The position numbers and the translations under genes are program-made. This document shows, one piece after another, positions 7,655-36,448 of a DNA stretch of 64,000 nt; the stretch's first letter is position 1, and each line of letters starts with the position of its first letter. Origin of the DNA: an uncultured Bacteroidales bacterium (GTDB taxonomy: Bacteria; Bacteroidota; Bacteroidia; Bacteroidales; Paludibacteraceae). The stretch lies in the NCBI GenBank assembly GCA_902774185.1, contig CACYHE010000003.1, positions 11,997 to 75,996 on the forward strand, in the 5' to 3' direction. The notes beneath the pieces are model-generated. The model worked only from the letters and a program-made list of their open reading frames with translations. It had not been told where the DNA came from and searched no databases.

Positions 7655-8680
7655 ATGAAGAAACTATTTACTCTTTTTGCAGCATGCATGGCAATGACGG
7701 CTTTGGCACAAAATTATCAACTCGTGTGGAACGAGGACTTTACGGATGCAGCCTTGGATAACCAGGTGTGGAACATCGAAGTGAATGCGGACGGTGGCGG
7801 CAATAACGAATTGCAGTATTATTGCGAGAAAGGTGTTTCGCTGGGCGTAGAGCCGACGACGGGTAAGAAATGTCTGATCCTGACGGCAACCAAAGAGTCG
7901 GCAGGTGGTCGGGATTGTACGTCCGGACGTGTGAATACGAAAAACAAGATGTATTACACATACGGAAAGATCGAAGCACGTATCAAGTTTCCGAAAACGG
8001 CGAACGGTCTATGGCCGGCATTCTGGCAGATGGGGAATAACTTCGACCAAGTAGGTTGGCCTAAATGCGGTGAGACGGACATCATCGAGATGGGGCATCA
8101 GAATGCGTTCAGCAAGGGTACGCAGGAGCGTTATTTCAACGGAGCCATGCACGTGGGACGCAGATGGGATGCGGTATGGAGCGATGCGCAGTCGGCTACG
8201 TGGGACTATTCGCTGCAAGATACATTCCATATTCTGACGATGATCTGGACGCCGACGTCCATCGATATGTATATGGATAAAGAGTCACATCCGGAGAATG
8301 GCGCTTATTTCCATGCGGATTTGGAGCCCAACGACGATGCAGACTATAACCGTCAACTGGTGTTCGGCAAACCGAACTTCATCATTGCCAACCTCGCTGT
8401 CGGCGGTAACTTCCCGGGTATCTATAACATCAACGGCATCACTGCTTTGGCTGCCGGACCTCGCTCGATGTATATCGATTGGATACGTATCTACCAGCGT
8501 GGCGATGCGAATGAGTCCTTCGTCTGCCCCACGGCATCTGATCCTATTGAACCCGAAGTGGTGCAAGGAGTGGAAAGAATTCATAATTCAGAATTTAGAA
8601 TTCAGAAAGTACTGCGTAACGGACAGATTCTTATCCAACGCGAAGGAGAAGTTTATAATATAATGGGAACGAAGTTATGA
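7655..8680 (+). CDS. GH16 beta-glucanase with short C-terminal sorting-like motif
   Basis: ATG 7655 gives the signal peptide MKKLFTLFAACMAMTALAQ. WPAFWQMG and GETDIIEM (ExDxxE). The C-terminus is KVLRNGQILIQREGEVYNIMGTKL. Confidence 0.9.
   Translation: MKKLFTLFAACMAMTALAQNYQLVWNEDFTDAALDNQVWNIEVNADGGGNNELQYYCEKGVSLGVEPTTGKKCLILTATKESAGGRDCTSGRVNTKNKMYYTYGKIEARIKFPKTANGLWPAFWQMGNNFDQVGWPKCGETDIIEMGHQNAFSKGTQERYFNGAMHVGRRWDAVWSDAQSATWDYSLQDTFHILTMIWTPTSIDMYMDKESHPENGAYFHADLEPNDDADYNRQLVFGKPNFIIANLAVGGNFPGIYNINGITALAAGPRSMYIDWIRIYQRGDANESFVCPTASDPIEPEVVQGVERIHNSEFRIQKVLRNGQILIQREGEVYNIMGTKL
8578..8608 (+). repeat. Heptamer tract AATTCAT AATTCAG AATTTAG AATTCAG (in frame in GH16, just before its C-terminal motif)
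   Basis: Read directly; encodes ...IHNSEFRIQK. Confidence 0.9.
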
Positions 8681-9651
8681 AAAAAATCTGTATTCTGTCA
8701 GCGTTAGCGGTCTGTGTTCTGTGCTCCTGCTCGAAGAGCGAGTACAAGCTGGTCTGGTCCGATGAGTTTGACGGCGAGACGCTGAACGCTGCTTATTGGA
8801 ACGTGGAAGACAATGCACGTGGAGGCGGTAATGCCGAGTTGCAGTACTATGCGCCGAAGAACGTCACCATCGAGCGTCATCCGGAGACAGGGGAGTCCTG
8901 TCTGGTGCTGAACGCGCAACGCGAAGACTACGGAAACCGTCCGTGTACTTCTGCGCGCCTCAATACGCAGGATAAGGTGACGGTGGAGTATGGAAAAGTG
9001 GAAGCTCGTATCGCTTTCCCTTATACCGCAGACGGTCTTTGGCCGGCATTCTGGATGCTCGGAAATAACCTTGCTACCAATTTAGGCGACAATGACGATA
9101 TCGATGCGCAGGTGGCGCAGTTGGAGAAAGAGAACCGTGTCGTTTGGCCCAAGTGCGGGGAGATAGACATCTGCGAGATGGGGCACCATAGCGGTATCGA
9201 AGCCGGTACGCAGGATCGTTTCTTCAATGGTGCCTGCCACTGGGGCGAATCGTTTAATAACGGAGCCTATCCCAATTTCGGACAGTTCTGCACGGCTGAC
9301 TACCCGGTACAAGGCGATTTTCACCTCTTCACACTCGAGTGGACCGCCGACACCATTGCCATGTATCTGGATAAAGACGTGTATCCGGACGTAGCGCCGT
9401 ATTTCCAACTCTCGTTGCGAAACAAAGAGGTGAATGAACCGGGACATTATTTCAACCACCCCTTCTATCTGGTGTTAAACCTCTCTGTAGGCGGGTTCTT
9501 CCCCGATATGCCGGCGGCAGAGAAATATCCGGAACTCATCACGGCGGATGATCCTTCCTTCCAACGCGTCACGGCTTTACCCGCAGATGGCACTCCTGTT
9601 AAGATGTATGTGGACTACATACGCGTGTATAAAATGGTACATAGTAAATGA
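8677..9651 (+). CDS. GH16 beta-glucanase lipoprotein
   Basis: ATGA overlap with the upstream gene, lipobox VLCSCS, WPAFWMLG and GEIDICEM. Confidence 0.9.
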   Translation: MKKICILSALAVCVLCSCSKSEYKLVWSDEFDGETLNAAYWNVEDNARGGGNAELQYYAPKNVTIERHPETGESCLVLNAQREDYGNRPCTSARLNTQDKVTVEYGKVEARIAFPYTADGLWPAFWMLGNNLATNLGDNDDIDAQVAQLEKENRVVWPKCGEIDICEMGHHSGIEAGTQDRFFNGACHWGESFNNGAYPNFGQFCTADYPVQGDFHLFTLEWTADTIAMYLDKDVYPDVAPYFQLSLRNKEVNEPGHYFNHPFYLVLNLSVGGFFPDMPAAEKYPELITADDPSFQRVTALPADGTPVKMYVDYIRVYKMVHSK

Positions 9652-9670
9652 TTAAATCGTAAATAGATTT

Positions 9671-11110
9671 ATGAAACTAAGCATTAAAGAAAAATTAGGC
9701 TACAGCCTGGGTGATACCGCGTCCCATTTTGTGTGGGACCTGGTCAATTTTTGGTTGATTTTCTATTACACGGATGTGTTGGGTATCTCTGCCGGTTGGG
9801 CAGCGACCATCGCTATCTTAGGTACGATCATGGATGCCGTCATGGATCCGATCGTAGGTATCTGGGCTGACCGTACCAACAGTCGTTGGGGTAAGTTCCG
9901 TCCGTTCTTACTGTTCGGATGCGTGCCGTTTGCGTTATTCGCTTTCTTGGCGTTCTTCGGTCCGGATCTGCAGGGCAATGCGCTGATTACGTATATCCTG
10001 CCGATGTTCATCGGTCTGCGTATCGTGTATGCGATCGTCAACATTCCGTATTCCTCTTTGGGAGCGGTCATGACGGATGACTCTATCGAGCGTGCCGGAT
10101 TGAATTCCTATCGTTTTGTGGCAGCGAACATCGGTCAACTCATCGTGTCGGGTTTTGCCCTCTATATCGTGTATTATCTCGGTTCGCACGCGACGGGAAT
10201 GGACTATTCCGTCATGATGGATGATGAGGCGCGTAAGCGGTTCATGGAAGAGGCAGTGGAGCATGCAGCCTTGGTACGCTCGTCCTATATCATCGGTTTC
10301 CGCTATCTGGTGGGTATCTTCGGATGCATCGGCGTTGTGCTTTTCTTGATTGCTTTCGCTACTACCAAGGAACGCGTGGCACCGCCTAAACGGCAAGAGA
10401 CCGACCTCAAACATGACTTCAAGTATCTGTTCAAGAATCGTCCCTGGGTCGTGCTGATGGTGGTTGGTATCGTGTCCTTCATTATGTTTGCTATCCAGAA
10501 TATTTCGGCTACGTATTACTTCAAGTACTTCTTGGATGCGGAGTCGAAGAGTCAGATATTTAATATCCTCGGTACCGTTGCTTTGATCATCGCTATCCCG
10601 ATGACCAAACCGCTTGTCAAGAAGTTCGGTGCTAAGCAGCTCTATATCGTTTGCTCGATCCTGTCGGGTTTGTTCTTCTGCCTGCTCTTCTTCGCCGGTA
10701 AGAACTTCGTACTGATCAATGTATTCAACTGCTTGGGTAAGATCTCTTACGCACCGGCGATATCGCTCTTATGGACGATGTTGGCGGACGCTGCGGATTA
10801 TGGAGAGTGGAAATTCAACCGCCGTACGACCGGTCTCTGTCTCTCCGCTGCCGTGTTTGCGCAGAAGATAGGATGGTCTATCGGAGCAGCGTTGTTCGGT
10901 GTAATCATGAGTAAGATTCATTTTGACGGTGGAGTGGACATCGCTGTCACACAAGCGAACCCGGAGATCATGAATACCATTCATTGGATGTTCGGTATCG
11001 TACCGGGTGTGCTCTATGCTTCGTGTGCCATCTTCCTGGTGTTCTATAACTTGGATAATAAGACCATGGCTCAGATGAAAGTTGAACTTGAAACCCGCAG
11101 ACAATCATGA
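9671..11110 (+). CDS. MFS transporter, glycoside-pentoside-hexuronide (GPH):cation symporter family
   Basis: Multi-TM hydrophobic profile and the GPH signature ADRTNSRWGKFRPF after TM2. Confidence 0.85.
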   Translation: MKLSIKEKLGYSLGDTASHFVWDLVNFWLIFYYTDVLGISAGWAATIAILGTIMDAVMDPIVGIWADRTNSRWGKFRPFLLFGCVPFALFAFLAFFGPDLQGNALITYILPMFIGLRIVYAIVNIPYSSLGAVMTDDSIERAGLNSYRFVAANIGQLIVSGFALYIVYYLGSHATGMDYSVMMDDEARKRFMEEAVEHAALVRSSYIIGFRYLVGIFGCIGVVLFLIAFATTKERVAPPKRQETDLKHDFKYLFKNRPWVVLMVVGIVSFIMFAIQNISATYYFKYFLDAESKSQIFNILGTVALIIAIPMTKPLVKKFGAKQLYIVCSILSGLFFCLLFFAGKNFVLINVFNCLGKISYAPAISLLWTMLADAADYGEWKFNRRTTGLCLSAAVFAQKIGWSIGAALFGVIMSKIHFDGGVDIAVTQANPEIMNTIHWMFGIVPGVLYASCAIFLVFYNLDNKTMAQMKVELETRRQS

Positions 11111-14100
11111 AAAAAGTAAGAGGTCAGTTTATTTGGATCAACGGTGAGCATTTCTATGAGATCGCTAACTACGATCAGATGAAGCCGTTCTTTATCTCCT
11201 TGGCATCGGATACAGACCTATGGATGTATTTGTCATCAACGGGTGGTCTCACCTGCGGACGTCGTAGTCCGGGCGAAGCGCTGTTCCCCTATTATACGGA
11301 TGATAAGATCACCGAGTCCTATGAGTTCACGGGACCGCGTACGGTTTTAGAAATCGTCAATCGTCAATCGTCCAATCGTCCATTAGTATGGCGGCCCTTC
11401 TCCAATATGCAACAACCGGTCTATCGTATCTCCCGTAAGATCGCCAAATCGACGGTGGGTAACCAGATCGTGTTCTGCGAAGAGAACCATTCGCTAGGAC
11501 TGCGTTTTTCCTATCTCTGGGCACCGGCGGGCAAGCACGGTTGGGTGCGTAGAGCTACGCTGGAGAACCTGACCCAAGAACCGGTTCGTGTTCGTCTGAC
11601 TGACATGCTGCAGAACGTGCTGCCGGCAGGTGTGGAGCGGAAGACCCAGAATGAGTTCTCGACCCTGGTGGACGGATATAAGAAAACCGAACTCGTACCC
11701 GGTACGTCCCTTGCCCTCTTCCGAATGGAAGCGATCTTGGTTGATCGTGCCGAACCTTCGGAATCCCTGACCTGCAATACCGTTTACGCCCTTGGTCTGC
11801 CTCGTGCGAACTATGCGCAGACGGAGTCCAAAGGGGTGCGTGGAGCGTATGTGGCCCGTTCATCGTTCAACCTTCAACCTTCATCGTCTCAGACTTGGTA
11901 CAACGTCTTGGATGTAAGCAAAGATGCGGTGGCGGTTCATGAACTGATGCGTTTCATTGCTACTCCGAAACGTGCGATCAAAGCCATCGAAGCTGCGATG
12001 CGTCAATCAACAGATGCCTTGATCCGTATCGTACATAAGAACGACGGTATCCAGATCACCGGAGATGAAGCAAATGATGCCCGTCATTTTGCAAACGTGC
12101 TGTTTAACACCATGCGTGGCGGCTATTATCTCAACTATCCTCCGAAATCGGATACCGAAGACCTGCCGTTGACCTTTGGTCGTCGGCACGGTGATCCGTC
12201 CCGGCCTTGGAACTTATTCAGTATCCATGTGCAGGATGAGAACGGTAACCCGGTAGTGGGATACCAGGGCAACTGGCGGGATATCTTCCAGAACTGGGAA
12301 GCCCTCTCGTACTCCTATCCGCTCTATACGAATCATATCATTGCCAAGTTCCTCAATGCCACGACGGCAGACGGTTACAACCCCTACCGTATCTCCAATG
12401 AGGGATTGGACTATGAGGTGATCGAACCCGAGAACCCATGGTCGAATATCGGTTACTGGGGTGACCATCAGATCATCTATCTGCTCAAACTGCTGGAGAT
12501 CAGTTATAAGCACGATCCGGAGAAACTGCGTCGTTTGTTACAGGCACGTCAGTACTCGTTTGCCAATGTGCCGTACCGCTTGAAGAGTTATGCCGAGATC
12601 GTAGCGGATCCGAAGAACAGTATCCGTTTTGATGACGAAGAACATAAGCGTATTCAAGCGCTCATTCCTGAGTTAGGCGCCGATGCCAAACTGTTATTGG
12701 ACGAGCAGCGTCAGGTACGTCGTACCACGATGGCGGACAAACTGCTTATCACACTGCTGACCAAACTGTCGAACTTCATTCCCAATGCCGGTATTTGGAT
12801 GAATACCTTGCGTCCCGAATGGAACGATGCGAATAATGCGCTGGTCGGTTTCGGCGCATCCATGGTCACGCTCTGCTACATGCGTCGGTATGTGACCTTC
12901 CTGCAGACCTTGTTGACCGAAGATATCACCATCGGTGTCGAGACAGAAGCGTTCCTGAAAGGAATCCACGAAGCGCTCAAACAATTGTCCAATCGTCAAT
13001 CGTCCAATCGTCAATTTACTGACGCTGTCGGTCTTGTCGGTGAAGCCTATCGTACGCGTGTATATAAAGGTATCAGCGGCGAACAAACGACAGTTGCTCT
13101 GGCTGAGGTACAGGCGTTCCTGACAGCAGCATTGGAGGCTATAGACGCTTCTATCCGTGCCAATAAACGCGAAGACGGATTGTATGAGGCGTATAATCTG
13201 ATTAAGTTCGACAATCAACAATCGACCATTGAGATCTCCCATCTCTATCAGATGTTGGAGGGACAAGTGGCGGTACTCACTTCCGGTTTGTTGACTCCCG
13301 AAGAGTCGGCAGACTTGCTGGATGCTATGCGGACTTCGGATCTCTATCGTGAAGACCAACGGTCGTATATGCTGTACCCCAATAGAAGGCGTAAGACCTT
13401 CCTCGAACTCAATAACCTGCCGGATGAAGCGAAAACGCTGCCGGTGGTTCAGAAATACTTGGGTACGATCCTCAAACAAGACTGCGACGGAGGTATCCAT
13501 TTCGACGCCAAGTACCGCAATGCGAATGAGTTGCCGGAGGAGTTGAAAGACCTGTACGAATCGATATTCAACCACCATGCTTTCACCGGTCGTAGCGGCA
13601 CGTTCTATAAGTATGAGGGACTCGGCTGTATCTACTGGCATATGGTGAGCAAGTTATTGCTTGCTGTAGGAGAAGTAATTCAGTCTGTCAGACCGCAGGA
13701 CGGTCTGTGCTCTGTCAGCGAAGCGGTCTGTCAGCGTTTGCGCGATCATTATCTCGCCATCCGTGAAGGAATCGGTTCGCATAAGAACCCTGCCGAATAC
13801 GGCGCGTTCCCCTTCGATCCCTATTCGCATACGCCGTCCATGGCAGGTGCACAACAACCCGGTATGACCGGTCAGGTGAAGGAAGATATCATCTCCCGTT
13901 GGTTCGAGTTAGGCGTGTTTGTGCGAGACGGACAAATCCATTTCGCACCGCAGGTGATCATCACCGATGATTTCGTGGGAGGTGCCCTGCAGTTTGACTA
14001 CTGCGGTACACATGTCATCTATCGTTTGCAGATAGAAGGTGAACCGCAAAGCATGTACCTCAATAATGCCGAGGTATCGTTAACCAAAGAACAAAGTGCG

Positions 14101-14160: not shown

Positions 14161-15761
14161 TCTTATTTGCGCTATGTGCGCTTACCGCTTGCACCGCCAA
14201 GGTGCCTTCTACTCATGTGTGGCTTACATCCGAAGCCGGAGACAAATGTGCCGAGAAAGAGGCGGTGGTCTTCACCAAAGCCAATGCCGATGCCAATGCC
14301 TTTGTCATTGACCTCAATGACCGTCGGCAGACCATAGACGGTTTCGGTAACTCGATCACCGAGTCCTCCGTCTTCGTTCTGGCATGCCTCACACCGGAGC
14401 AGCGCCATGCCGTGCTGGAAGAGATGTACGGGGAGCAGGGGGCCAACTTCAGTGCCAGCCGTACTGTGGTGGGTGCTTCCGATTTTGCCCTCAAAGGACA
14501 TTATTCGTTTGACGACGTGGACGGCGATGAAGATCTGACGTATTTCTCCATGGCGGTTCATCAAGACGGGTTCTCCAAAGCAGAGTATCCGCAGGTTCAG
14601 GATGAGTCCTTCGATATGTGGCAATGTATCCATGAGATAGCTTCTATCAAAGCGGCGCAGACCGATTCGGAATGGAAACTGCTGGCTTCTCCTTGGACGG
14701 CTCCCGCTTGGATGAAAGATAACAAACAGTTCTTTGACAAACAGCACCGTTACGGTGGGGCATTGTTACCGAAATACTACGACGCGTATGCTCGATACTA
14801 CGTCAAATATCTGGATGCATATCGTCAATCGGGCATCCGTTTCTGGGCAATCACGCCGGAGAATGAACCGATGGGTAACGATGGTTCCTGGGAGTCGATG
14901 CACCTCTCACCGGCAGTGGAAGCTACGCTGATTGGTCAGTATCTGGGTCCGGAGATGGAGAAGAACGGGTTCGGCGATGTGAAGATACTCGGTTTTGACC
15001 AGAACACCTTCGAGGCTGCTCCTTATACCGAAGCTATCTTCGGTGACTCCTTGGCAAATGCCTATACCGACGGAACAGCGCTGCACTGGTATGGTTCTAC
15101 CATCAGTTGTTTCCCGGAAGTGCTGGATTCACTTCATGCGGCACACCCGGGTAAACGTCTTATCCATACCGAAGGATGTGTGGATAACTTGGGTCGGGAC
15201 GGTTGGCCCGGAGTATCGGACTACGAAGGATACAAAGAGTGCTGTTGGTTCAATAACGATGCGTTCTGGTGGACTCCGTCCGCTACTGATTGGGCCTATT
15301 CGACCCCTTGGTGGCCGGAGTGGCATCCTAAATATGCCGTTACCCATCGTTATGCAAGTTATATCATTGACGGTATCAACCATTGGTTAACCGGATATAT
15401 CGACTGGAACGCCGTACTCGATTCGATAGGCGGACCGACGCACGTGCAGAATTACTGCGGTGCGATGCTGATGGTCGATTATCAAAATGATATCCTCTAT
15501 TTCACACCCTATTTCTATGTGCTCAAGCAGTTCAGCCGCTCCATGCGTCCGGGTGATACGGTGTTGGGCGTAGAAGACAGAGCACAGAACACAGAACACA
15601 GACCTATTTACCTTTGCGCGACAGTCAACGACCAAGGTGAATATGCCATCAATATCCTCAATACGGGTGAGGCAACATCCTTCCCGGTGCAGATAGGTGC
15701 GTATAGCGCAACCATCGACATGCCTGCCAATTCCGTTGAAACGATCATCGTGAAGTTATGA
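14148..15761 (+). CDS. GH30 glycoside hydrolase (beta-1,6-glucanase/glucosylceramidase-like) lipoprotein
   Basis: Lipobox LTAC, IDGFGNSITESS, WAITPENEP (acid/base Glu) and LIHTEGC (nucleophile Glu). Confidence 0.85.
   Translation: MRQVILFALCALTACTAKVPSTHVWLTSEAGDKCAEKEAVVFTKANADANAFVIDLNDRRQTIDGFGNSITESSVFVLACLTPEQRHAVLEEMYGEQGANFSASRTVVGASDFALKGHYSFDDVDGDEDLTYFSMAVHQDGFSKAEYPQVQDESFDMWQCIHEIASIKAAQTDSEWKLLASPWTAPAWMKDNKQFFDKQHRYGGALLPKYYDAYARYYVKYLDAYRQSGIRFWAITPENEPMGNDGSWESMHLSPAVEATLIGQYLGPEMEKNGFGDVKILGFDQNTFEAAPYTEAIFGDSLANAYTDGTALHWYGSTISCFPEVLDSLHAAHPGKRLIHTEGCVDNLGRDGWPGVSDYEGYKECCWFNNDAFWWTPSATDWAYSTPWWPEWHPKYAVTHRYASYIIDGINHWLTGYIDWNAVLDSIGGPTHVQNYCGAMLMVDYQNDILYFTPYFYVLKQFSRSMRPGDTVLGVEDRAQNTEHRPIYLCATVNDQGEYAINILNTGEATSFPVQIGAYSATIDMPANSVETIIVKL
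15577..15604 (+). repeat. ACAGAAC-type heptamer tract x4 (reverse complement of the TCTGT family), in frame in GH30
   Basis: Encodes RAQNTEHR. Confidence 0.9.
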
Positions 15762-24309: not shown

Positions 24310-24379
24310 AAGGTGAAAGGTGAAAGTTGAAAAATGAAAGGACATATAAGGTGAAAGGTGAAAGATTGAAGGTGAAAGG
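24310..24379 (+). repeat. AAGGTGA heptamer tracts (5 + 4 units) spanning the TonB-receptor start region
   Basis: aaggtga aaggtga aagttga aaaatga aaggaca tat aaggtga aaggtga aagattg aaggtga. Confidence 0.9.
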
Positions 24380-26900: not shown

Positions 26901-26907
26901 TAGAAAG

Positions 26908-28101: not shown

Positions 28102-28108
28102 ATACTGA

Positions 28109-29254
28109 ATGCTGACAACTATTCTCGCCATATTAACCGCGTTAGTGACGGACACCGCACGTACGGACTTGACTCTTTCGGGACAGTTCGGGCAAGGTAC
28201 GCAAGTACTTGAAGGACGCCAGACCGGAGGTTTTGAAGTCAATGTTCGTTCTGTATATGATATCAATGCCGTCAGTCGTGTGTTCGGAGAGGCATCCTAT
28301 ATATGGCAGGACTGCAAGCAGACCCAGGGGGTGGACAATGCCGATTATCGGATGACCGCTCCCTATTGGACGGTTGATACCGTCGGTGGAGACTTGCGTC
28401 GGGAGATTTATTACTTCCGTGGAGGTTATCGTATGCTTAAGAATCATATTCTTTGGCATGCGGCACTACAGTTCCGTGCCGAGCAGAGTTATCGCATGCG
28501 TGACCCGCGCGCTAAAAATAAGGTGTCGGATCTGCGAGTGGAAGCAAGTGTCGGGTATCAATGGAATCGCTATGCACTAAGCCTCCTGGCATACGGCGGG
28601 CGGTACAAACAGAATAACGAGATTCGGTTCTATTCGGAGTTAGGCGAAACCACCATTTACCATATGGCGAACGAAACCGAACCCTATGCACGGTTTTCAA
28701 ATAATAACAAAGTCAGTTACTATAGCGGGTATCGTGCCGGCGTGGGGTTGCAGTTATTGCCGACAACGGGTTTTATGGCAGGGGTGCAGTATGACTGGTT
28801 CCGATTCACAAAAGAGTTGACCATCAATACACAAGTACCTATCGTACGCCTGAATACGCATACGTTCTCTGCACAGTTGGGGTATGTTGCACAATGTTGG
28901 CGTGTACAGGGTGCGGCAGGCATCGAACTCAAACGAGGGGAACAATTCCTATATGGCGATAATGCCAATAACTACTACGAGTTGTTGCTCATTTCGCCCA
29001 ACTATCGTGCGAACTATGTCTTTGCGAATATCTATGGGGATTATCGTCTGCCTTTACCTATCGGAGATTTGCTCTTTGTGGGAGCGGTGGACTATGATCA
29101 GTTCTTGCAGCATGTGTCAGAACAGCTACGCGTGCAATACACCTTCCCTGTCAAGAATCAATACGCATGGTTCGTGGCACCCAAAGCATGCTTTCATCAG
29201 TATGACCGCGCGCATGCTTGGCAAGTTACATTAGAAACCGGACTGACATTTTAA
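28109..29254 (+). CDS. Putative outer-membrane beta-barrel protein
   Basis: Alternating Y/G/R-rich beta-strand pattern and a C-terminal LETGLTF (terminal Phe). Confidence 0.5.
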   Translation: MLTTILAILTALVTDTARTDLTLSGQFGQGTQVLEGRQTGGFEVNVRSVYDINAVSRVFGEASYIWQDCKQTQGVDNADYRMTAPYWTVDTVGGDLRREIYYFRGGYRMLKNHILWHAALQFRAEQSYRMRDPRAKNKVSDLRVEASVGYQWNRYALSLLAYGGRYKQNNEIRFYSELGETTIYHMANETEPYARFSNNNKVSYYSGYRAGVGLQLLPTTGFMAGVQYDWFRFTKELTINTQVPIVRLNTHTFSAQLGYVAQCWRVQGAAGIELKRGEQFLYGDNANNYYELLLISPNYRANYVFANIYGDYRLPLPIGDLLFVGAVDYDQFLQHVSEQLRVQYTFPVKNQYAWFVAPKACFHQYDRAHAWQVTLETGLTF

Positions 29255-29283
29255 CAGTTTAACAATTTAACAACTTAACAAAA
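29250..29283 (+). repeat. TTTAACAn 8-9-mer tract x4, intergenic
   Basis: tttaacag tttaacaa tttaacaac ttaacaaaa, overlapping the stop of the 28109-29254 gene. Confidence 0.85.
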
Positions 29284-29289
29284 ATAAGT

Positions 29290-29730
29290 ATGAAAAAGTT
29301 ATTTTTTATTTTGGCAGCAGGGCTGTTTGCTCTGACTGCATGCCAAAAACAGGCAGAACAAGCACAAGTAGTGTACTCTATTGATGAGGTGTATGCACAA
29401 GCCGACTCGTTGGCAGGTGACACGATTGTTTTTCAAGGTATCTGTTCGCATCTCTGCAAACATGGTGGTCGTAAGGCTTTCCTGATGGGTAGCGACGAAA
29501 GCCACATCTTGCGCGTAGAAGGAGCTTCGGCTGGTAACTTCGCTCCGGAGTGTATCAATAACCTCGTACGTGTGCGCGGGGTCCTGCATGCAATCCAGAT
29601 TGTTCCGGAAGATTGCGAGAGCAGTGACGGACTCAAACATGGTGAAGATGACAATGGCTGCGAAACGGAGAAGAAAGCCATCCGCACCTTTTTTGCAGAA
29701 GCAGTTAGTTACGAGATCATTACTGAATAA
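29290..29730 (+). CDS. Small Cys-rich lipoprotein
   Basis: Lipobox FALTAC, CSHLCKHGG and further Cys residues. Precedes the PepSY-TM gene with a TAATG junction. Confidence 0.5.
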   Translation: MKKLFFILAAGLFALTACQKQAEQAQVVYSIDEVYAQADSLAGDTIVFQGICSHLCKHGGRKAFLMGSDESHILRVEGASAGNFAPECINNLVRVRGVLHAIQIVPEDCESSDGLKHGEDDNGCETEKKAIRTFFAEAVSYEIITE

Positions 29731-30269
29731 TGGAACGCGGCGCACAGATTCGTAAGTGGTTCAGAATCATCCACCGCGAACTCAGTTATGTGTTCGCGGG
29801 GATGCTGTTGGTCTATGCCATCAGCGGTATCGCCCTGAACCACAAAGCAACCTTTAATAGTTCTTATCGCATTGAGCGTACGGAATACCAACTGCCGGCA
29901 GAGGGTACGATTGATCAATGGTTAACCCTTTGTGGTGTGGGAGGTAAGGAGATCCAGCATTACAACCCGGATGAGAATACGCTTAAGGTCTTTCTCAAAG
30001 GAAACAGTACGCTGACAGTGGATATGACGACGCATATCGGTGTGCTGGAGCAAGTCAAGAAACGCCCTATCTTGGGAAACCTTAGTAAATTGCATTATAA
30101 CATGCAGGGAAAAGCATGGACGTGGTTCTCGGATATCTTTGCGATTGCACTTGTCCTGATCGTGCTCTCCGGTTTGTTTATGCTTAAAGGTAAACATGGT
30201 CTATGGGGCATTGGCGGCATCGAACTGGCTGTCGGTATCTTGATTCCGTTGCTCTTTATCCTCTTATAA
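29730..30269 (+). CDS. PepSY-associated TM-helix protein (putative reductase/uptake accessory)
   Basis: Several TM segments (VFAGMLLVYAISGIAL, FAIALVLIVLSGLFML, IELAVGILIPLLFILL) in a TonB-receptor neighbourhood. Confidence 0.6.
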   Translation: MERGAQIRKWFRIIHRELSYVFAGMLLVYAISGIALNHKATFNSSYRIERTEYQLPAEGTIDQWLTLCGVGGKEIQHYNPDENTLKVFLKGNSTLTVDMTTHIGVLEQVKKRPILGNLSKLHYNMQGKAWTWFSDIFAIALVLIVLSGLFMLKGKHGLWGIGGIELAVGILIPLLFILL

Positions 30270-30272
30270 AAT

Positions 30273-30302
30273 AAACGACCCGTCTTTTCAGGCGGGTCGT
30301 TT
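30273..30302. terminator. Bidirectional stem-loop terminator between convergent genes
   Basis: aaacgacccg / cgggtcgttt forms a 10-bp perfect stem with A/T-rich flanks. Confidence 0.6.
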
Positions 30303-30327
30303 CGTATCAACAAAAGAGAAAAATAGT

Positions 30328-33111
30328 TTATTGAATTTTGTTTCCTCGTACATCGTACATGGTTCCTTTGTACATGATATAGAGTTGTCCGTTTTGGATA
30401 AACTTAACAGCCTTTCCGCTTTCACTCTTTACGCTCTCAATACCTTCTGTGTTGGCTATGATAGCTTCTTTCGAAATAGGAATGATGTACCAACCGTTCA
30501 TGTAATACAGGCAGATACCGCTGATCTTGGAGATATTGGCTGGCCATTCATAGCCTTCCGAAAGTACTCCGAACAGGTCACGTGACGTGATGGTCTTACC
30601 CGCCTCATCGGTGAGAATCTGGTTTTTACCGCTTGCTGTAGCGCTTACATTCTCAATGGTAATAAGTCGTGCGTAGTTGGCTTGTACGCATGCTTCAGCA
30701 ATCGTCATTGTGGTCGGTGTAAGTTCTGTCTCCGTTGCGGTAACACCTGCAGCATCTAAAACGGTCAGCATAGGCTCAACAGCTTCTGCCGGATCGTTCA
30801 CATAATCCACCTCATTCGTGCTCTTGGTGCCGATAATCACACCGTTAAGAGCAGTACCTACAGTCAGTTCAATGCCGGAAATAACGGTAGCAGCCGTCGC
30901 GTCTTCTACATAATATACCTTCTGCAAATCTGCATAGGCAGTCACCTTCGCGTCTGTCAACGTCAACTTAACCGCCTTGTTATCCGCTATGGCATTGAAT
31001 GCTGCGATATTGTTCACTTCTACAATATCCTCAATGATGGTCTTAAAGTAGTCGCCAATCCACGGTGTGTTTTGATAGGCTTCTTTCGTCCCGTAAGGAA
31101 CAACGACCACAGCTAAGGTATCCGTGTTATTGGCGTGGGTTGTACTGATCTGCCACGGGTTCTGGGTCCAGGTAGCCGTCTCTTTGGTAGCGATGCTCGG
31201 CGGAACCGTTCCCTTGAATACGATCGTATCCAATTGCGGTAAAGCAAATGCCATTACACACAAGGAATCAATCGATGCAGGCAAAACCAGCTTCTTCAAG
31301 GTCATCGGAGAAGCAGCGGCTGCATTGTGAATACAGGTCGCAGGAATCATTTTAATACCTTCCGGTAACTCCAACTCTTGAACGTTCACGGCACCTTGGA
31401 AAGCCTGCATACCCAGTTCCTTCACTTGGCTGCCTTCTGCAAACGTAATCGTCTTGGCTGTCGTGTTACGCAGTGCGCCTTGACCCAAAGCAACTACCGG
31501 ATATTCACGGTTCTCCTGACGTACAGAAACCGGAATAAAGATGTCTTCTATCTCGTACTTGAACGTTGTGTTCAAGCGAATCAACGTAGCGGTTCTTGTG
31601 ACGTTGTTCAGTTCATAATACAGACCATCTACTTGAATAGTGTCTTTTTCAGGCAGTACAGCGTTATCATTCAATACTGCAAAAATGCTATACCAGTTCG
31701 TGATGGCATAGTCCGTCGCTTTGAACTCTTCGTCGAACATCTGATAGTCCGATGTCGTGCGGGCACGCAGACCGACAGCCGTATGGTCTCCCGCTGCACA
31801 ACGACCTACTACGGAAACGGTTGACTGACCGCCACCCTGACCGATCGTATCGGCGCTGGTAAGATTCATCTGTGCGTCATAGTGGAAAATCTGTTGAATA
31901 CCATTCAGCGTCTCATGGTTATAAGCAACATAACCGTCTTTAGTGGGATATGCCGCTACCGTGATATTGAGTGCATTATTGGCTGCAGCATGAACATCAA
32001 AATCAAGTACTTTGCCGTCTGCTTGATTGATGATATACACTAATCCGTGGTTATAATTACCATTCGTTGCGATCGTTTTCTCGCCTACGGTTATGCTACC
32101 TTTAGCAAGTGCACCGCAAACGAAGATTTTACCGTCCTCAAACTTAGTTTGCTGGAACTGAAGCGAACCTGCAATCGGATGATATTCGATAAACTCACGC
32201 TCTAAATTAGTGGTATAGCAAGCCGCATAGATACCGCTCTCGTTTTCCTTGCCGTATGTTCCGGCGATATACAACTTACCGTTCTCATAGTGCATACCCA
32301 ATGGACGGTCATAAGCCAACTCATCGTTGTTGATCACATTGCCTGTATATACAAGGTCTTGTGTGGCTTTGTTTACTTGATACTTAAGAATAATGGTGTT
32401 GCAATTACTGCTTAGACTTCCCTTGGTGTTCCATGCTTTTCGTGGCGCAATAGAGTCATTCCATGTCGGCAATAAAGTGTCTCCTTGAAGACCTGCGATA
32501 TAGACAAAACCATCTTTATCTTCTGCCGCGCCTGCCCATGAAAACGCTTCTTTACGGAATACTTTCTTACCATCAACTTCAATAGAATCATAATTGGTGA
32601 AGGACATGTTGTTGCTGGCAACTAACTGACCATCTTTGTCATATACATTGATAAATCCCATGTACACCGCCTTGCGCGTACGGAACTTGTCTGCGTAAAT
32701 GACACCGCCGTCTTCTGTAATAGTCATAGCCGAATTGGACAGATCATAGTCACCCGTCGTATCCGCTTTCGCCCACAACAGATTGCCCTCTGCATCCAAC
32801 TTGGCAAGGAAGGAATTACGCATGTTCGTGTACTTGAAATCGCCCGGTTTACTGCCCCATTTGGCGGCAGTAGCTCCTTTGTACGTCTTGCCGTCAAAAT
32901 GCAAACCTGCTTCTTCGGCACTTGTCGTTTGATAACTGCTTAGCAGGTACAAACTGCCATCTGCGGCATACTCCAGATTGTACAGTTGCGTCGTTCCTTT
33001 GCTTGCATCCGCCTGCTCGTCCACAAGCGTCTTGTAGTAATCCAGTTCAACGGCTTGTGCCATCAAACTCAGCCCTAAGGCTGCCAAAAAGAAAATCTTC
33101 TTCATACGCAT
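30328..33111 (-). CDS. Secreted BspA-type leucine-rich repeat (LRR_5) protein with beta-propeller-like N-half and C-terminal sorting-like motif
   Basis: Signal peptide MRMKKIFFLAALGLSLMAQA. LRR_5-like block (ITFAEGSQVKELGMQAFQG...LELPEGIKMIP...LVLPASIDSL). The C-terminus is KFIQNGQLYIMYKGTMYDVRGNKIQ. Confidence 0.75.
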   Translation of the reverse strand: MRMKKIFFLAALGLSLMAQAVELDYYKTLVDEQADASKGTTQLYNLEYAADGSLYLLSSYQTTSAEEAGLHFDGKTYKGATAAKWGSKPGDFKYTNMRNSFLAKLDAEGNLLWAKADTTGDYDLSNSAMTITEDGGVIYADKFRTRKAVYMGFINVYDKDGQLVASNNMSFTNYDSIEVDGKKVFRKEAFSWAGAAEDKDGFVYIAGLQGDTLLPTWNDSIAPRKAWNTKGSLSSNCNTIILKYQVNKATQDLVYTGNVINNDELAYDRPLGMHYENGKLYIAGTYGKENESGIYAACYTTNLEREFIEYHPIAGSLQFQQTKFEDGKIFVCGALAKGSITVGEKTIATNGNYNHGLVYIINQADGKVLDFDVHAAANNALNITVAAYPTKDGYVAYNHETLNGIQQIFHYDAQMNLTSADTIGQGGGQSTVSVVGRCAAGDHTAVGLRARTTSDYQMFDEEFKATDYAITNWYSIFAVLNDNAVLPEKDTIQVDGLYYELNNVTRTATLIRLNTTFKYEIEDIFIPVSVRQENREYPVVALGQGALRNTTAKTITFAEGSQVKELGMQAFQGAVNVQELELPEGIKMIPATCIHNAAAASPMTLKKLVLPASIDSLCVMAFALPQLDTIVFKGTVPPSIATKETATWTQNPWQISTTHANNTDTLAVVVVPYGTKEAYQNTPWIGDYFKTIIEDIVEVNNIAAFNAIADNKAVKLTLTDAKVTAYADLQKVYYVEDATAATVISGIELTVGTALNGVIIGTKSTNEVDYVNDPAEAVEPMLTVLDAAGVTATETELTPTTMTIAEACVQANYARLITIENVSATASGKNQILTDEAGKTITSRDLFGVLSEGYEWPANISKISGICLYYMNGWYIIPISKEAIIANTEGIESVKSESGKAVKFIQNGQLYIMYKGTMYDVRGNKIQ

Positions 33112-33133
33112 ATATTATTTAAATGTAATTAAG

Positions 33134-33164
33134 TCTGTACTCTGTATTCTGTACTCTGTATTCT
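33134..33164. repeat. TCTGTAC/TCTGTAT heptamer tract x4, intergenic (5' leader side of the LRR gene)
   Basis: Same family as 15783-15813. Confidence 0.9.
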
Positions 33165-33174
33165 TTCAAAATCC

Positions 33175-33194
33175 GCTGCAAAATTACTGCTTTT
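33175..33194 (-). promoter_or_regulatory. Promoter (-7 box, reverse complement TAATTTTG) for the LRR gene
   Basis: gctgcaaaattactgctttt is the exact reverse complement of the tmRNA promoter core at 33256-33275. Confidence 0.6.
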
Positions 33195-33237
33195 CTCCGA
33201 CGTGCGCAATACCTAAATTTAGTGATTTTTCATTTTT

Positions 33238-33276
33238 TTCTTGCATATTCCAAAAAAAAGCAGTAATTTTGCAGCC
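33238..33276 (+). promoter_or_regulatory. Promoter of tmRNA/tRNA-Ala
   Basis: cttgcatattccaaaaaaaagcagTAATTTTGcagcc, with the -7 box at 33264-33271, about 12 nt before the tmRNA 5' end. Confidence 0.75.
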
Positions 33277-33282
33277 GATTTT

Positions 33283-33696
33283 GGGGCTATCTGGTTTTGA
33301 CAGCAGGTAGAATGGTTGTGTAAGCACGCCGAGCAATGAGGCAACGCTCGTTAATCTCGCTTCAAAATATAACTGGCGAAAGAACTTATGCTCTCGCTGC
33401 TTGATCGAAGTATAGTAGATCGGCGTATTTGGGCGCAAGGCGCCTGAACGGGACGTCACTCCAAGCCGAGTCTGTGGGCTGAATGGATATAGTGGCGCAG
33501 GAATTCACAGAATAGGTCTCTTTGGCTGCGCAAAGAAACTGATGGCTGAAAGCTGAATGCTGACAGCTCCAATAGCAGATAAGTCGGCAGTTGGTGGCTT
33601 GGGTCTTGCTGCCGAACGAAAATAAAGGCCAAGATAAGCGTGTAGAAAGCATAAGTATTCCTTGTTTGGACACGGGTTCGACTCCCGTTAGCTCCA
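33283..33696 (+). ncRNA. ssrA: tmRNA (SsrA)
   Basis: 5' GGGGCUA pairs with 3' UAGCUCC plus discriminator A (G3:U70). T-arm is ACGGGTTCGACTCCCGT. Tag ORF at 33375-33404 encodes GERTYALAA then stop. Confidence 0.92.
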
Positions 33697-33771: not shown

Positions 33772-33917
33772 ATCAAACGATTTCAAACAATATCAAACGA
33801 AATCAAACAATATCAAACGATTTCAAACAATATCAAACGAAATCAAACAATATCAAACGATTTCAAACAAAACAATATCAAACGATTTCAAACAATATCA
33901 AACGAAATCAAACAATA
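33772..33917. repeat. 14-unit tandem array of 10-nt TCAAACnnnn repeats (40-nt higher-order unit)
   Basis: tcaaacgatt tcaaacaata tcaaacgaaa tcaaacaata is repeated about 3.5 times with one 5-nt insertion. The array fills the whole tRNA-Ala to 33924 spacer. Confidence 0.95.
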
Positions 33918-36254: not shown

Positions 36255-36328
36255 GGCCCCGTAGCTCAATTGAATAGAGTGTCAGATTCCGGTTCTGAAG
36301 GTTCTGGGTTTGAGCCCCAGCGGGGTCA
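36255..36328 (+). tRNA. tRNA-Arg (anticodon CCG) with unusual D-loop/T-loop pair
   Basis: 74-nt cloverleaf with acceptor GGCCCCG/CGGGGTC and anticodon loop TTCCGGT. D-loop AATTGAATA has A at position 19 and T-loop TTTGAGC has T at position 56. Confidence 0.85.
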
Positions 36329-36391
36329 CAAAGCGGAAGCTCGCGCCGTTGGCGCAAATTAGTTTATTTAGCCAGCGGGGTCACAAAGCGG
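36317..36391 (+). repeat. 20-bp direct repeat of the tRNA-Arg 3' end (ccagcggggtcacaaagcgg at 36317-36336 and 36372-36391)
   Basis: Exact duplication read directly. The first copy includes the last 12 nt of the tRNA. Confidence 0.9.
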
Positions 36392-36420
36392 GCAACCATC
36401 TCGGTTGCTCGCTTTTTTTT
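36388..36420 (+). terminator. Rho-independent terminator after tRNA-Arg
   Basis: gcgggcaacc / ggttgctcgc forms a 10-bp stem (one G:U) with loop atctc, followed by T8. Confidence 0.8.
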
Positions 36421-36421
36421 A

Positions 36422-36448
36422 CCCCAAACACCCCAAAATCCCCAAATT
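36422..36448 (+). repeat. CCCCAAAnn 9-mer tract x3, intergenic
   Basis: ccccaaaca ccccaaaat ccccaaatt, directly after the tRNA-Arg terminator. Confidence 0.8.

Follow-up and report, generated by a model that had tools for sequence, protein, structure and literature searches.

Heptanucleotide tracts in and between genes of rumen Paludibacteraceae: probable fast-turnover microsatellites sieved by selection, and a nested 24-nt element

INTRODUCTION

Why do short tandem arrays of 7-nt units recur, with related motifs, inside conserved enzymes, in signal peptides, beside tRNA genes and in intergenic DNA of one bacterial chromosome? The question is raised by a beta-glucan utilisation locus of an uncultured rumen bacterium of the Paludibacteraceae (order Bacteroidales), analysed here as a stretch of 64,000 nt (contig CACYHE010000003.1, positions 11,997 to 75,996; hereafter, the window). 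An earlier note on this DNA had listed the arrays and had offered four explanations: one propagating element, footprints of an insertion or repair process, protein- or RNA-binding arrays, and contingency loci. We have compared the window with strains of the same species, with related species and with metagenomic DNA. The tracts are not one mobile element, not on/off switches and not sequence-specific binding sites. We consider it probable, if by no means certain, that they are lineage-wide heptanucleotide microsatellites with a fast turnover that are sieved by selection, with some transfer of sequence between arrays; they are best regarded as tolerated mutational by-products, not as devices.

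An excess of heptanucleotide simple-sequence repeats (SSRs) is known from many bacteria and has been proposed to result from polymerase slippage (Mrázek 2007, as cited in PMC4679880 and PMC4692102). The only proposal for the 7-nt register cited in these two sources is the stretch of DNA that is held by the replicative polymerase (Mrázek 2007). The existence of heptanucleotide repeats of the STRR type in cyanobacteria is cited as well (PMC4692102).

RESULTS

Period-7 tracts in the native part of the window

The first 21.7 kb of the window encode SusC/SusD, a Big_2 protein, three GH16 enzymes, a Glyco_hydro_cc enzyme with a carbohydrate-binding module (CBM), an MFS transporter, a protein of 1017 amino acids (aa) that matches no Pfam family, GH30, GH81 (which has two F5/8-type domains) and GH3. 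On the minus strand, DUF4857 and an ABC ATPase come next; they are followed by a TonB-dependent receptor, DUF4876, DUF6850 and a leucine-rich-repeat (LRR) protein of 927 aa, downstream of which lie the genes for transfer-messenger RNA (tmRNA), tRNA-Ala, a Zn peptidase and tRNA-Arg.

Tandem Repeats Finder (TRF) at a score of ≥40 found 16 non-redundant period-7 tracts, all at 8.5 to 36.3 kb, and none in 30 third-order Markov simulations of the window. A self-similarity scan at lags of 4 to 16 nt was enriched at lag 7 only, with minor tails at 8 and 11. The typical tract has 4 to 5 units (29 to 36 nt) with slight imperfections, and in many cases one of its units has 8 instead of 7 nt. Density is uneven even within the native part, since the stretch from 1 to 8.5 kb has a single weak tract, at 2342. 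The tracts are head-to-tail repeats of a 5- to 11-nt unit that are longer than expected by chance, i.e., SSRs, and, as in the STRR type, they are tandem heptamers of a few families dispersed over the chromosome. All coordinates and motifs in the earlier note were recovered by TRF with small shifts in coordinate or rotation, and the peptides quoted there are indeed in-frame translations of the tracts. Its list can be extended by the tracts at 11857 (the third in the 1017-aa protein), 33545 to 33568 (tmRNA) and 28097 and by the array after tRNA-Ala (33772 to 33917).

The strains used for comparison are conspecific: over 24 kb of DNA, L082 and L085 are ~97.7% and L083 is ~93 to 95% identical to the window. 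L086 is identical to L085, and L084 differs from L083 by a scaffold gap only; these contig pairs gave no micro-variation. All strain comparisons rest on assemblies, not on reads. An artefact of assembly or sequencing, with chimeric or mis-assembled short repeats, has a practically negligible probability. The sources are metagenome assemblies, and short repeats can confuse assemblers; however, an independent ENA contig (L081) is 100% identical to the window over 16.6 kb, the tracts are far shorter than reads, reading frames are intact through every tract, and orthologous tracts recur in dozens of independent metagenome-assembled genomes (MAGs) and in an NCBI genome.

The tracts and their strain alleles are as follows (E1 and E2 are nested elements that are described below).

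2342 to 2365, plus strand: TTGTTCC x3.4, weak; lipoprotein signal peptide of the SusD-like gene
8576 to 8607, plus strand: AGAATTC x4.6; GH16a linker ahead of the C-terminal tail, peptide RIHNSEFRIQ; E2 inside in L083 and L084
9628 to 9669, plus strand: 42-nt strain-variable TAAATNN-rich segment; GH16b end/MFS start; present in the window and L085, absent from L082 and L083
11352 to 11380, plus strand: AATCGTC, units 7-7-8-7; 1017-aa protein, aa 82 to 92; orthologues have nothing or an AAGGTGA-type peptide (KVKGE...)
11857 to 11887, plus strand: CGTTCAA/CCTTCAA x4.4; 1017-aa protein, aa 251 to 261; TCTCAGT-type units of equal total length in L083
12982 to 13015, plus strand: AATCGTC, units 8-7-8-7; 1017-aa protein, aa 626 to 637; decamer array (TCAATCCGAT x4) in L082 and L085
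15572 to 15602, plus strand: AGAACAC x4.4; GH30 near the C-terminus; reverse complement of the 15783 tract (24 nt, 92% complementary)
15783 to 15813, plus strand: TCTGTAT x4.4; hydrophobic core VCILCSVFCT of the GH81 signal peptide; different cassettes in other strains
16539 to 16570, plus strand: CAATCAC x4.6, perfect; GH81 loop, aa 261 to 271 (ITNHQSPITNE); in a 42-nt stretch absent from L083 and five GH81 variants
16612 to 16646, plus strand: TACCAAT x5; GH81, aa 285 to 297; +21 nt, +42 nt or TTCAACT units at equal length in strains
18366 to 18401, plus strand: TCAATCT x5.1; first F5/8-type carbohydrate-binding domain of GH81 (INLQSSISNLQS); alternative allele IQITHYQSQLTN
18887 to 18901, plus strand: two-unit proto-tract AACCAATCGCCAACT; GH81; +21 nt (three more units) in L082
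19350 to 19382, plus strand: AAATCGT x4.6; GH81 C-terminal linker; AATCACC units with nested 24-nt E1 in L082 and L085
19955 to 19988, plus strand: CAATCGT, units 7-7-8-7; GH3 loop (NRQSSIGQSSI); AATCACC in L082 and L085, an NDQMV 15-mer or nothing in other species
20580 to 20610, plus strand: TTAAACC/TTCAACC x3.9; GH3 loop; AAATCAC x5 in L082 and L083
20707 to 20742, plus strand: decamer TCAAACAATA x3.6; GH3 loop; unit common to the array after tRNA-Ala
21329 to 21393, plus strand: nine heptamers with a 21-nt superperiod, AAATGAC-CAATTAC-CAATGAC; GH3, encoding (QLPMTND)n; +21 or −39 nt in strains
22053 to 22086, minus strand: TAATTTT x4.9 (sense AAATTAA-type); DUF4857 gene; GACTTTC-type units in L082 and L085
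22726 to 22757, minus strand: AAATTAT/AAATTTG x2.3 (14-nt unit); DUF4857 N-terminus; E2 inside in L082, L085 and L086
24310 to 24379, plus strand: AAGGTGA x9.6; ahead of the TonB-dependent receptor and overlapping its probable GTG start; 72-nt segment absent from L082 and L085
24400 to 24429, plus strand: TTTCAAT x4.3; receptor signal peptide (LSIFIFQFSI); TCTGTAC units in L082 and L085
28097 to 28115, plus strand: ACTGAAT x2.7, short; DUF4876/DUF6850 gene junction
29246 to 29281, plus strand: 8-mer ACAATTTA x4.5; spans the DUF6850 stop codon and intergenic DNA; identical in three strains
33134 to 33164, unstranded: TCTGTAC/TCTGTAT x4.4; intergenic, between the 927-aa LRR gene and the tmRNA promoter
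33545 to 33568, plus strand: GCTGAAA x3.4; within the gene for tmRNA; belongs to a 25-nt insertion that L083 lacks
33772 to 33917, plus strand: 10/20-nt array ATCAAACGAT/TTCAAACAAT, 15 copies, 146 nt; begins at the first base after tRNA-Ala; absent from L083
36216 to 36246, unstranded: AATCGTC, units 8-7-8-7; intergenic, 9 nt upstream of tRNA-Arg; AAATCTC/AAATCAC (7-7-7) in L083
36421 to 36446, unstranded: 9-mer ACCCCAAAA x2.9; exactly where similarity to L083 ends (left edge of the island)

Tract positions are hot spots in a rumen lineage

To see how far the tracts extend, 54 loci of related rumen Paludibacteraceae (L001 to L053 and L068; 1.09 Mb; the ingroup) were searched with TRF, which found 155 period-7 tracts (1 to 4 per 10 kb) with ~100 different units. 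Copy number peaks at 3.5 to 4.5 units and does not fall monotonically. GH81 orthologues in GTDB species representatives are 58 to 78% identical to that of the window, and nearly all come from rumen or gut MAGs. No period-7 tracts were found by TRF in the loci of Pedobacter, Pseudopedobacter, Pelobium, Flavobacteriaceae, Dysgonomonas and nearly all Prevotella.

In orthologue alignments, the tract positions are hot spots across species. Residue 189 of GH3 is an example: NRQSSIGQSSI in the window contrasts with DQMVNDQMVPG in many species and NPLTRDSLTP or NPLIPNPLIP in others, while four species are empty at this site. Distant outgroup orthologues have ordinary, non-repetitive loops at the tract positions, and the tracts are thus lineage-specific, as had been suspected. 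A single propagating element, also suggested at the time, does not agree with ~100 motifs among 155 tracts. Nor do the tract flanks have target-site duplications, conserved ends or inverted repeats, as footprints of a transposon or of a miniature inverted-repeat transposable element would. A 9-nt flank repeat at 19955 was considered as a target duplication and discarded: its removal would take out 40 nt, which is out of frame, and the repeat is explained by the AATC of the tract itself.

The trait is not confined to the Paludibacteraceae. Three high-GC rumen MAG loci that are labelled Verrucomicrobia or "uncultured bacterium" also carry heptamer arrays. They lie around a GH81 gene in L057 (10952-12397, 16182-16226), L062 (2794-3209, 10277-10308) and L063, at a GC content of 0.60 to 0.65, with the units GAGTTGA x7.6, CTCAACT x6.4, GTGGAGA x6.4 and GAGGGAA x5.9.

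In GH3 of the relatives, longer in-frame insertions recur at different loops of one protein:

L014: 14109-14258, 14820-14927, 15642-15791
L012: 14124-14255, 14808-14894
L006: 15465-15569

L014 has an element of ~90 nt that is bounded by CCGCAGGCAG repeats and contains an AATCTAC tract and a GC-rich hairpin. L012, L018, L022 and L006 have 16- to 23-nt periodic GGTCTGTCAG... insertions with a CCGGTCT...AGACCGG hairpin at the end.

Strain-level variation is concentrated at the tracts

The 90%-identity cluster of the window GH81 has 16 members of 1215 to 1268 residues. Thirteen were aligned (94 to 100% identical), and nearly all variation among them lies at tract sites. The signal peptide occurs in four versions, and the ITNHQSPITNE tract is a 14-aa presence/absence polymorphism. 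At 16612, TNYQLQITNYQ alternates with SFNFQLSTFNY at equal length, or 7 or 14 aa are added. The F5/8-type domain has two alleles, given above; some variants have a 7-aa longer tract where the window has two units only; and the C-terminal linker has four versions, one with eight extra residues nested in the tract.

The same holds for DNA, where nearly all indels of L082, L083 and L085 against the window over 24 kb are within tracts or next to them: +21 and +42 nt at 16618, +21 nt at 18901 and 21391, −39 nt at 21323, presence or absence of 42 nt each at 16528 and 9628, and 72 nt of AAGGTGA units before the receptor start that only the window has. Copy number differs between close genomes by whole units, as in microsatellites, and the polymorphism between strains for which a check had been proposed is real. 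Furthermore, whole arrays of one heptamer are replaced by another with the length kept at 11857, 16612, 19350, 19955, 20580, 22053 and 24400, and the units of the tract before tRNA-Arg (36216) are also replaced between the window and L083. The change from AATCGTC to AATCACC at both 19350 and 19955 was considered as proof of genome-wide rewriting and dropped, since the two sites are 600 nt apart and one recombination tract suffices.

Replacement of units bears directly on the idea that the tracts are binding arrays for an abundant DNA- or RNA-binding protein, either iteron-like or in translational control. Some of them do lie at gene starts and ends (24310 before the receptor, the junctions at 9628, 28097 and 29246, and 36216 before tRNA-Arg), the first and last tenths of open reading frames (ORFs) are enriched, the inverted pairs 15572/15783 and 24321/24407 could form hairpins, and such a role has been proposed for TAACTGA in Beggiatoaceae and for heptamers near Nostoc start codons (PMC4679880; bioRxiv 10.1101/2022.06.06.494920). 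However, binding arrays would conserve the unit of each site among close relatives, whereas here unrelated heptamers replace each other at eight sites, including 36216, while the position persists, and some strains lack whole arrays that others have. The majority of tracts are coding, the ~100 motifs have no common core, and the tracts match no Rfam family; a search of the window and of four loci with E2 copies in 5′ untranslated regions (5′ UTRs) returned tmRNA and tRNA matches only. The inverted pairing of 15572/15783 is lost in L082 and L085. Binding arrays are, in our opinion, very improbable. Conserved hairpins from the two inverted pairs had been a separate candidate, which was rejected because the pairing is lost in these two strains.

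No out-of-frame allele was found among the 13 full-length GH81 variants. All their copy changes are multiples of three units, and all tract indels within genes are multiples of 3 nt. The three truncated cluster members, P0127, P0131 and P0133, break away from tracts. Hence, with no frameshifted GH81 allele, the tracts are not on/off switches. In the tmRNA gene, the heptamer insertion of the window has 25 nt, which is not a multiple of three; L083 is without it, and the remaining tmRNA is almost identical.

Placement within genes appears to follow what a protein can tolerate

Placement was evaluated for 320 tracts with periods of 7, 8, 14, 15, 21, 22 and 23 nt in the window and the ingroup loci. 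Fifty-four of them lie outside stop-to-stop ORFs, in 3% of the sequence (six-fold enrichment, p = 1e-24), and 83% lie inside. Within ORFs, the first and last tenths are favoured. The coding tracts of the window are found in signal peptides (GH81, the receptor and the SusD-like gene), in linkers ahead of a conserved C-terminal tail (GH16a and GH81) and at internal positions (GH81, GH3, GH30, DUF4857 and the 1017-aa protein). Aligned with a solved homologue, PDB 3u48, GH3 has all four of its tracts at gapped loop positions; the alignment and structure check that had been suggested thus places tracts in gapped loops of conserved enzymes.

The unit is free of stop codons on the sense strand in 94 of 104 internal coding tracts, compared to 69% expected, and on the antisense strand in 35 of 104; among intergenic tracts, 9 of 27 are stop-free on either strand. 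Such units are needed because a heptamer array in frame is read in all three phases. Accordingly, in the alternation AAATGAC-CAATTAC-CAATGAC at 21329, the phase that would give TGA reads TTA. Units of 8 nt restore the frame, since 7 + 8 = 15. Superperiods of 15 or 21 nt are commoner in coding than in intergenic tracts (54:144 versus 3:27, p = 0.04), and pure 8-mers are relatively commoner in intergenic DNA (p = 0.012). The sense strand of the tracts has A 0.38, C 0.27, T 0.25 and G 0.10; S, Q, I, L, T, N, K and P abound in the encoded peptides, and T-rich units provide the hydrophobic cores of signal peptides (VCILCSVFCT, LSIFIFQFSI).

Are the tracts then contingency or diversity loci, in which selection keeps hypermutable repeats in order to vary surface loops and signal peptides (against phage, protozoa or host antibody) or to switch genes? 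The products of most tract-bearing genes of the window are secreted or outer-membrane components of a polysaccharide utilisation locus, tract sites hold most of the differences between strain alleles, and there is a precedent in the AAGACTC repeats of neuO in E. coli K1, which are translated in frame and give the full-length protein only at multiples of three units (PMC13001214). That locus, however, is one long perfect array of 3 to 53 units with ON/OFF states and most genomes OFF (65% phase-OFF), whereas the many short imperfect arrays described here have no OFF alleles (0 of 13 in GH81), and truncated GH81 proteins do not break at tracts (PMC13001214 for neuO). Short imperfect tracts with mixed 7- and 8-nt units dampen slippage. 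Their hosts are not restricted to surface or host-interaction genes and include cytoplasmic enzymes: the 1017-aa protein, which is cytoplasmic, has tracts, as have tmRNA and intergenic DNA and, in relatives, chorismate synthase, PrmC, an RlmI-like methyltransferase and a 2-hydroxyacid dehydrogenase. The enrichment outside ORFs is expected for tolerated rather than selected insertions. Contingency loci, the last explanation of the earlier note, are therefore improbable.

Some side observations concern gene models. A chorismate synthase with an insertion matched Pfam in two stretches. The GH81 frame overlaps the GH3 start by 30 to 80 nt, depending on the start codon (19389-19468); the gene caller of the public contig places the GH3 start at 19437. 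In related species, the frame upstream of GH3 closes one to a few dozen codons ahead of the GH3 start, and the overlap in the window comes after the 19350 tract.

Growth from local seeds and apparent exchange between arrays

Three arrays have visibly grown out of local sequence, which lends indirect support to strand slippage in replication as their source. The AAGGTGA array at the receptor overlaps its probable GTG start, where L082 and L085 have only GTGAAAC; the CTGAAAG tract in tmRNA replaces CCGAAAAC; and the two-unit proto-tract at 18887 gains three units in L082.

Local growth is not all. Identical units occur in 3.2% of within-locus tract pairs, compared to 1.1% between loci and 0.05% for random heptamers; since, in addition, a 7-nt step within a gene is a frameshift, plain slippage by one unit is insufficient, as the earlier note had argued from the recurrence of motifs. 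AATCGTC is found at five sites of the window, with the unit pattern 7-7-8-7 at 11352 and 19955 and 8-7-8-7 at 12982 and 36216, and the coding tract at 12982 matches the intergenic tract at 36216 at 30 of 33 positions. In the window, the signal peptide encoded by a TCTGTAY array is that of GH81; in L082 and L085, it is that of the receptor. In these two strains, GH16b and GH81 have a signal-peptide cassette in common (CTCTTTGAGCGYAGYGGTCTTTTRTCT..., peptide LFSLSVAVFCLLA). Sequence appears to move between arrays, and the shared cassettes suggest that segments coding for signal peptides are exchanged between genes. In the window, TCTGTRT-type sequence is present in both GH16b and GH81 (8690-8740 and 15755-15830).

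24-nt elements nested in the arrays

Three strain-specific insertions inside tracts were found, each of exactly 24 nt. The element E2 (TTC/TTATCC-N4-GGAACGATTAT/TTC, 24 nt) lies in the AGAATTC tract of GH16a in L083 and L084 (L083:2820-2850; window site 8579) and, on the minus strand, in the AAATTTC tract of DUF4857 in L082, L085 and L086 (window site 22744). L082 and L085 carry the element E1 (TACGGCGCAAGCAGATCGGAAGAA, ~24 nt) in the GH81 linker, inside its AATCACC tract (window site 19372). Relatives of E1 with the core GCGAAGCAGATCG are present in two tracts of L068 (L068:2775, L068:14224) and at L018:19376; this core contains GCGAAGC, which we take to be a very stable DNA mini-hairpin. The host tracts of E1, which was found by eye only and at 5 sites, are AATCACC, AAGTACC and AATGACC. 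A strict, unbiased scan of the loci examined for array-nested elements found E2 only.

In 241 million metagenome records, the E2 core was matched by at least 120 DNA stretches (L087 to L206), with 109 distinct sites among the matches listed. At least 38 sites have TTC on both sides. In 28 of the 38 listed, the surrounding DNA is 7-nt periodic, with at least 13 motifs and with TTCAAAT, TTCAAAA, TTCACAA, TTCAATT and others as flanking units. Among the matches listed, none of the 59 without TTC flanks is in periodic DNA, and these are presumably chance hits. The sense strand of E2 is open in all three frames, and 29 of the 38 listed sites are inside an ORF of at least 100 codons on that strand. 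Host genes encode chorismate synthase, PrmC, an RlmI-like methyltransferase, a 2-hydroxyacid dehydrogenase, a THUMP-like methyltransferase, a SusD-like protein and a TolC-like protein. E2 is one conserved sequence in frame in unrelated genes, as Rickettsia palindromic elements are, but it has neither their size nor their palindromy; the arrays themselves have no conserved sequence. In 2.9 million viral contigs, E2 was not found, and AATCACC x3 occurred in 12 only. Some E2 copies are in 5′ UTRs, downstream of a Bacteroidetes-type promoter and ahead of the start codon, as in a VirE-like gene (L157) and an AraC-like gene (L087).

These elements count among the arguments for a dedicated insertion or writing machinery, such as an HUH single-strand nuclease, a reverse transcriptase with a short template or a recombinase, that would place complete ~30-nt arrays as well as the 24-nt elements at permissive sites; the tracts would then be a family of ultra-small mobile DNA rather than products of slippage. 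E2 has fixed ends at at least 38 unrelated sites, is present or absent within one species at two loci and is open in three frames. Moreover, single 7-nt growth steps would frameshift intact genes, tract length clusters at ~29 to 36 nt (4 to 5 units), the odd patterns 7-7-8-7 and 8-7-8-7 are common to AATCGTC tracts at different loci, one of them intergenic, and dominant motifs differ by genome. On the other hand, a single machinery does not readily account for ~100 motifs among 155 tracts, nor for arrays without conserved ends, inverted repeats or target duplications; growth in situ from local seeds and 21-nt steps are seen, no candidate enzyme gene was found in the window or the loci examined, and E2 was missing from the viral contigs. 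Clustering at ~4 units is also known from Xanthomonas arrays (PMC4692102), and microsatellite models with length-dependent contraction can yield it. We regard such a machinery as unlikely, but as a serious candidate. The footprints of insertion or repair of the earlier note are borne out in part: arrays do exchange sequence and host an inserted 24-nt element.

A tract-free island beside tRNA-Arg

Similarity to L083 stops at ~36,420, next to tRNA-Arg, and an island starts there with zinc-ribbon, C25-like, TIR-WD40 and caspase-LRR genes and a lower G+C content than the native part. The earlier note had found no tracts by eye in this region, and indeed there is no period-7 tract at 36.5 to 59.6 kb. 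The probability of finding none is 6e-6 at the native tract density of the window and 0.03 to 0.17 at the clade-average density.

The island (36420-59600) has a G+C content of 0.37 to 0.46, a TIR-WD40 protein at 46880-49861, LRR-caspase proteins at 50361-51755 and 56014-58197, and near-identical repeats of 99 to 137 nt at 49913-50263, 52878-53110 and 54255-54364. Downstream of the tRNA, L083 has DUF6088/AbiEii, FHA and PP2C genes in its place. L083 is also without an 11.5-kb block of the window (21680-33240, from DUF4857 to the 927-aa LRR protein), and has tmRNA and tRNA-Ala right after GH3. The tRNA-Arg region ends in a 20-nt sequence (CCAGCGGGGTCACAAAGCGG, 36317-36336) that is repeated directly at 36372-36391, 55 nt downstream, in the window and in L083. 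Judged from sequence, this repeat looks like the remnant of an att site from earlier integrations; ~30 nt beyond it, the present island begins. No further att-like copy of the 3′ end of tRNA-Arg was found as a mark of the island's right edge; the only copies are those at 36317 and 36372.

Another repeat family, of ~50 nt (TTTGCATAT..CAAAAAAAAGCAGTAATTTTGCAGCCGA), lies upstream of many genes of the window:

24250-24305, 33226-33281, 36460-36511, 49866-49917, 53128-53183, 54203-54258
56003-56054, 58201-58252, 59622-59646, 61820-61875, 63674-63729

Its members fit what we take to be the Bacteroidetes promoter consensus (TTTG ... TAnnTTTG) and are presumably promoters, not a mobile repeat.

DISCUSSION

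Our model of fast-turnover microsatellites sieved by selection has three steps. First, as the strain comparisons show, arrays at fixed sites grow, shrink and are rebuilt in a 7-nt register. Second, selection would sieve the output, and the distribution of the tracts has the shape that such a sieve would leave: survivors should be found in intergenic DNA, at the 5′ and 3′ ends of genes, in signal peptides, surface loops and domain linkers and in the variable segment of tmRNA. Within genes, a survivor would need a stop-free sense strand, a total length divisible by 3 and a tolerable peptide, polar (S/Q/T/N/I/P) in loops and hydrophobic in signal peptides. Third, arrays would exchange sequence, in part visible in the units and cassettes that they share, most likely by microhomology-guided template switching or short-patch conversion.

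The steps account for different observations. The demand for stop-free sequence with a length divisible by 3 gives the superperiods of 15 (7 + 8) and 21 (3 x 7) nt, and the sieve as a whole explains why the tracts are strand-biased, rich in A/C and poor in G, and in part why their motifs resemble each other. Exchange between arrays would give the genome-specific dominant motifs, the coding-type 8-7-8-7 pattern in an intergenic array, the shared signal-peptide cassettes and the occurrence of E2 at TTC/TTC junctions of arrays with many motifs.

Several points weigh against this model. A new array in an intact gene that grows by 7-nt steps needs frameshifted intermediates or one multi-unit or en-bloc event, and simple slippage is strained. 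No change by a single unit (±7 nt) was observed, in comparisons of assemblies only and with in-gene changes necessarily multiples of 3. Motif replacements usually come with clustered flanking substitutions; homologous recombination that reshuffles old alleles contributes, and much of the strain pattern could be old and not due to recent turnover. The excess of motif sharing is only ~3-fold, and the compared loci are orthologous, so the counts are not fully independent. The identical boundaries of E2 in arrays that have only TTC in common would fit site-specific insertion by an enzyme better than template switching. Finally, the model leaves unexplained why tracts are present here and absent in Bacteroidales relatives, while some high-GC MAGs labelled Verrucomicrobia have them.

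How do the tracts relate to known repeats? The STRR heptanucleotide repeats of Calothrix, Nostoc and Anabaena were reportedly described by Mazel et al. in 1990. They, too, are dispersed short arrays with several heptamer families per genome and are lineage-specific; in contrast, the present tracts are from another phylum, their motifs are far more diverse and change between strains, and they show strain-level turnover and frame-corrected superperiods. They are also not STRR in the strict sense, in which the defined units STRR1 to STRR3 belong to heterocystous cyanobacteria, whereas those of rumen Paludibacteraceae have ~100 motifs. Only one motif coincides, CAATGAC of the window, a rotation of the complement of TTGGTCA, which we take to be STRR2.

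For the nested elements, the closest counterpart would be the small dispersed repeats (SDR) of Nostoc punctiforme that Elhai et al. are said to have described in 2008 (Genome Res 18:1484, as cited in PMC3116915), of 21 to 27 nt and nested in tandem heptamer repeats. E2 and E1, with 24 nt, nesting in heptamer arrays, insertion polymorphism and no known associated gene, are alike. Size, many copies and nesting of E2 all agree with this description of SDR, which applies to E2 and not to the tracts. E2 differs in its TTC/TTC junctions, its mostly coding location, its sense orientation and its host, a member of the Bacteroidales, and the two are likened by description only.

The tracts share with the LSSR5-11 class of repeats (Mrázek, Guo and Shah 2007, as cited in PMC4679880 and PMC4692102) the over-representation of heptamers, their restriction to some lineages and their variation between related genomes, and LSSR5-11 have likewise been interpreted, according to the same two sources, as a by-product of a tendency to expand and not as devices. 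They differ in that most of them (83%) are in stop-to-stop ORFs, in frame in conserved enzymes, with a further one in tmRNA, and in their host, an uncultured clade of rumen Bacteroidales outside those surveys as far as these sources describe them. The GGGAATC arrays of Xanthomonas and GGGGA(C/T)T arrays of Nostoc have ~4 units, conserved positions, length and sequence that vary between close relatives and some inverted pairs, as do the tracts; however, they are G-rich, quadruplex-prone, intergenic and of one motif family, whereas the tracts have 10% G on the sense strand and many motifs and are mostly coding (PMC4692102). TAACTGA repeats of marine Beggiatoaceae, some cyanobacteria and five Bacteroidetes, including Paludibacter propionicigenes, have 2 to 6 copies, occasional copies in ORFs at protein ends and an orientation that is constrained by stop codons; unlike the tracts, they are a single motif, overwhelmingly intergenic and immediately upstream of start codons (PMC4679880). 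Rickettsia palindromic elements are also selfish-looking DNA in frame in unrelated metabolic genes, at structurally tolerated positions, but they are palindromes of ~150 bp with a conserved sequence, whereas the arrays have 30 nt without one and E2 has 24 nt (PMC10969869).

The general heptanucleotide excess is thus already known, as STRR, as GGGAATC in Xanthomonas and as TAACTGA in Beggiatoaceae and a few Bacteroidetes. Our literature search found no report of such repeats for rumen Paludibacteraceae. Tracts that are mostly coding and in frame in conserved enzymes, the insertion in tmRNA, the strain-level turnover and a nested 24-nt element in Bacteroidales appear to be undescribed. To our knowledge, the heptanucleotide excess, noted in 1990 in cyanobacteria and in 2007 across genomes, still has no mechanism and has received little experimental attention.

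It is imaginable, if rather unlikely, that rumen Paludibacteraceae, and perhaps other lineages of the rumen, harbour an ultra-small mobile DNA system in which the arrays are self-renewing landing pads and a site-specific enzyme inserts E2 (at TTC) and E1 (at ACC) and rewrites the arrays. If true, it would place frame-preserving insertions in hundreds of ordinary proteins and even in tmRNA, and it would be the Bacteroidales counterpart of the association of heptamer repeats and SDR in Nostoc, with a shared mechanism behind the bacterial 7-nt excess.

In sum, under the favoured reading of tolerated microsatellites as well, the clade is unusually informative, with dense arrays inside well-understood enzymes whose insertions can be mapped onto folds. 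Rumen metagenomes give many strains per species, from which gain, loss, 21-nt stepping, replacement and nested insertions can be read directly. This makes it testable whether the replisome or a dedicated enzyme sets the 7-nt register, how far proteins and tmRNA tolerate in-frame junk, and whether the 24-nt elements are mobile on their own. For the biology of these bacteria, the tracts inflate strain-level protein diversity and split Pfam matches; they can mislead analyses of orthology, dN/dS and MAG quality, and they are usable as strain-typing markers for rumen Bacteroidales.

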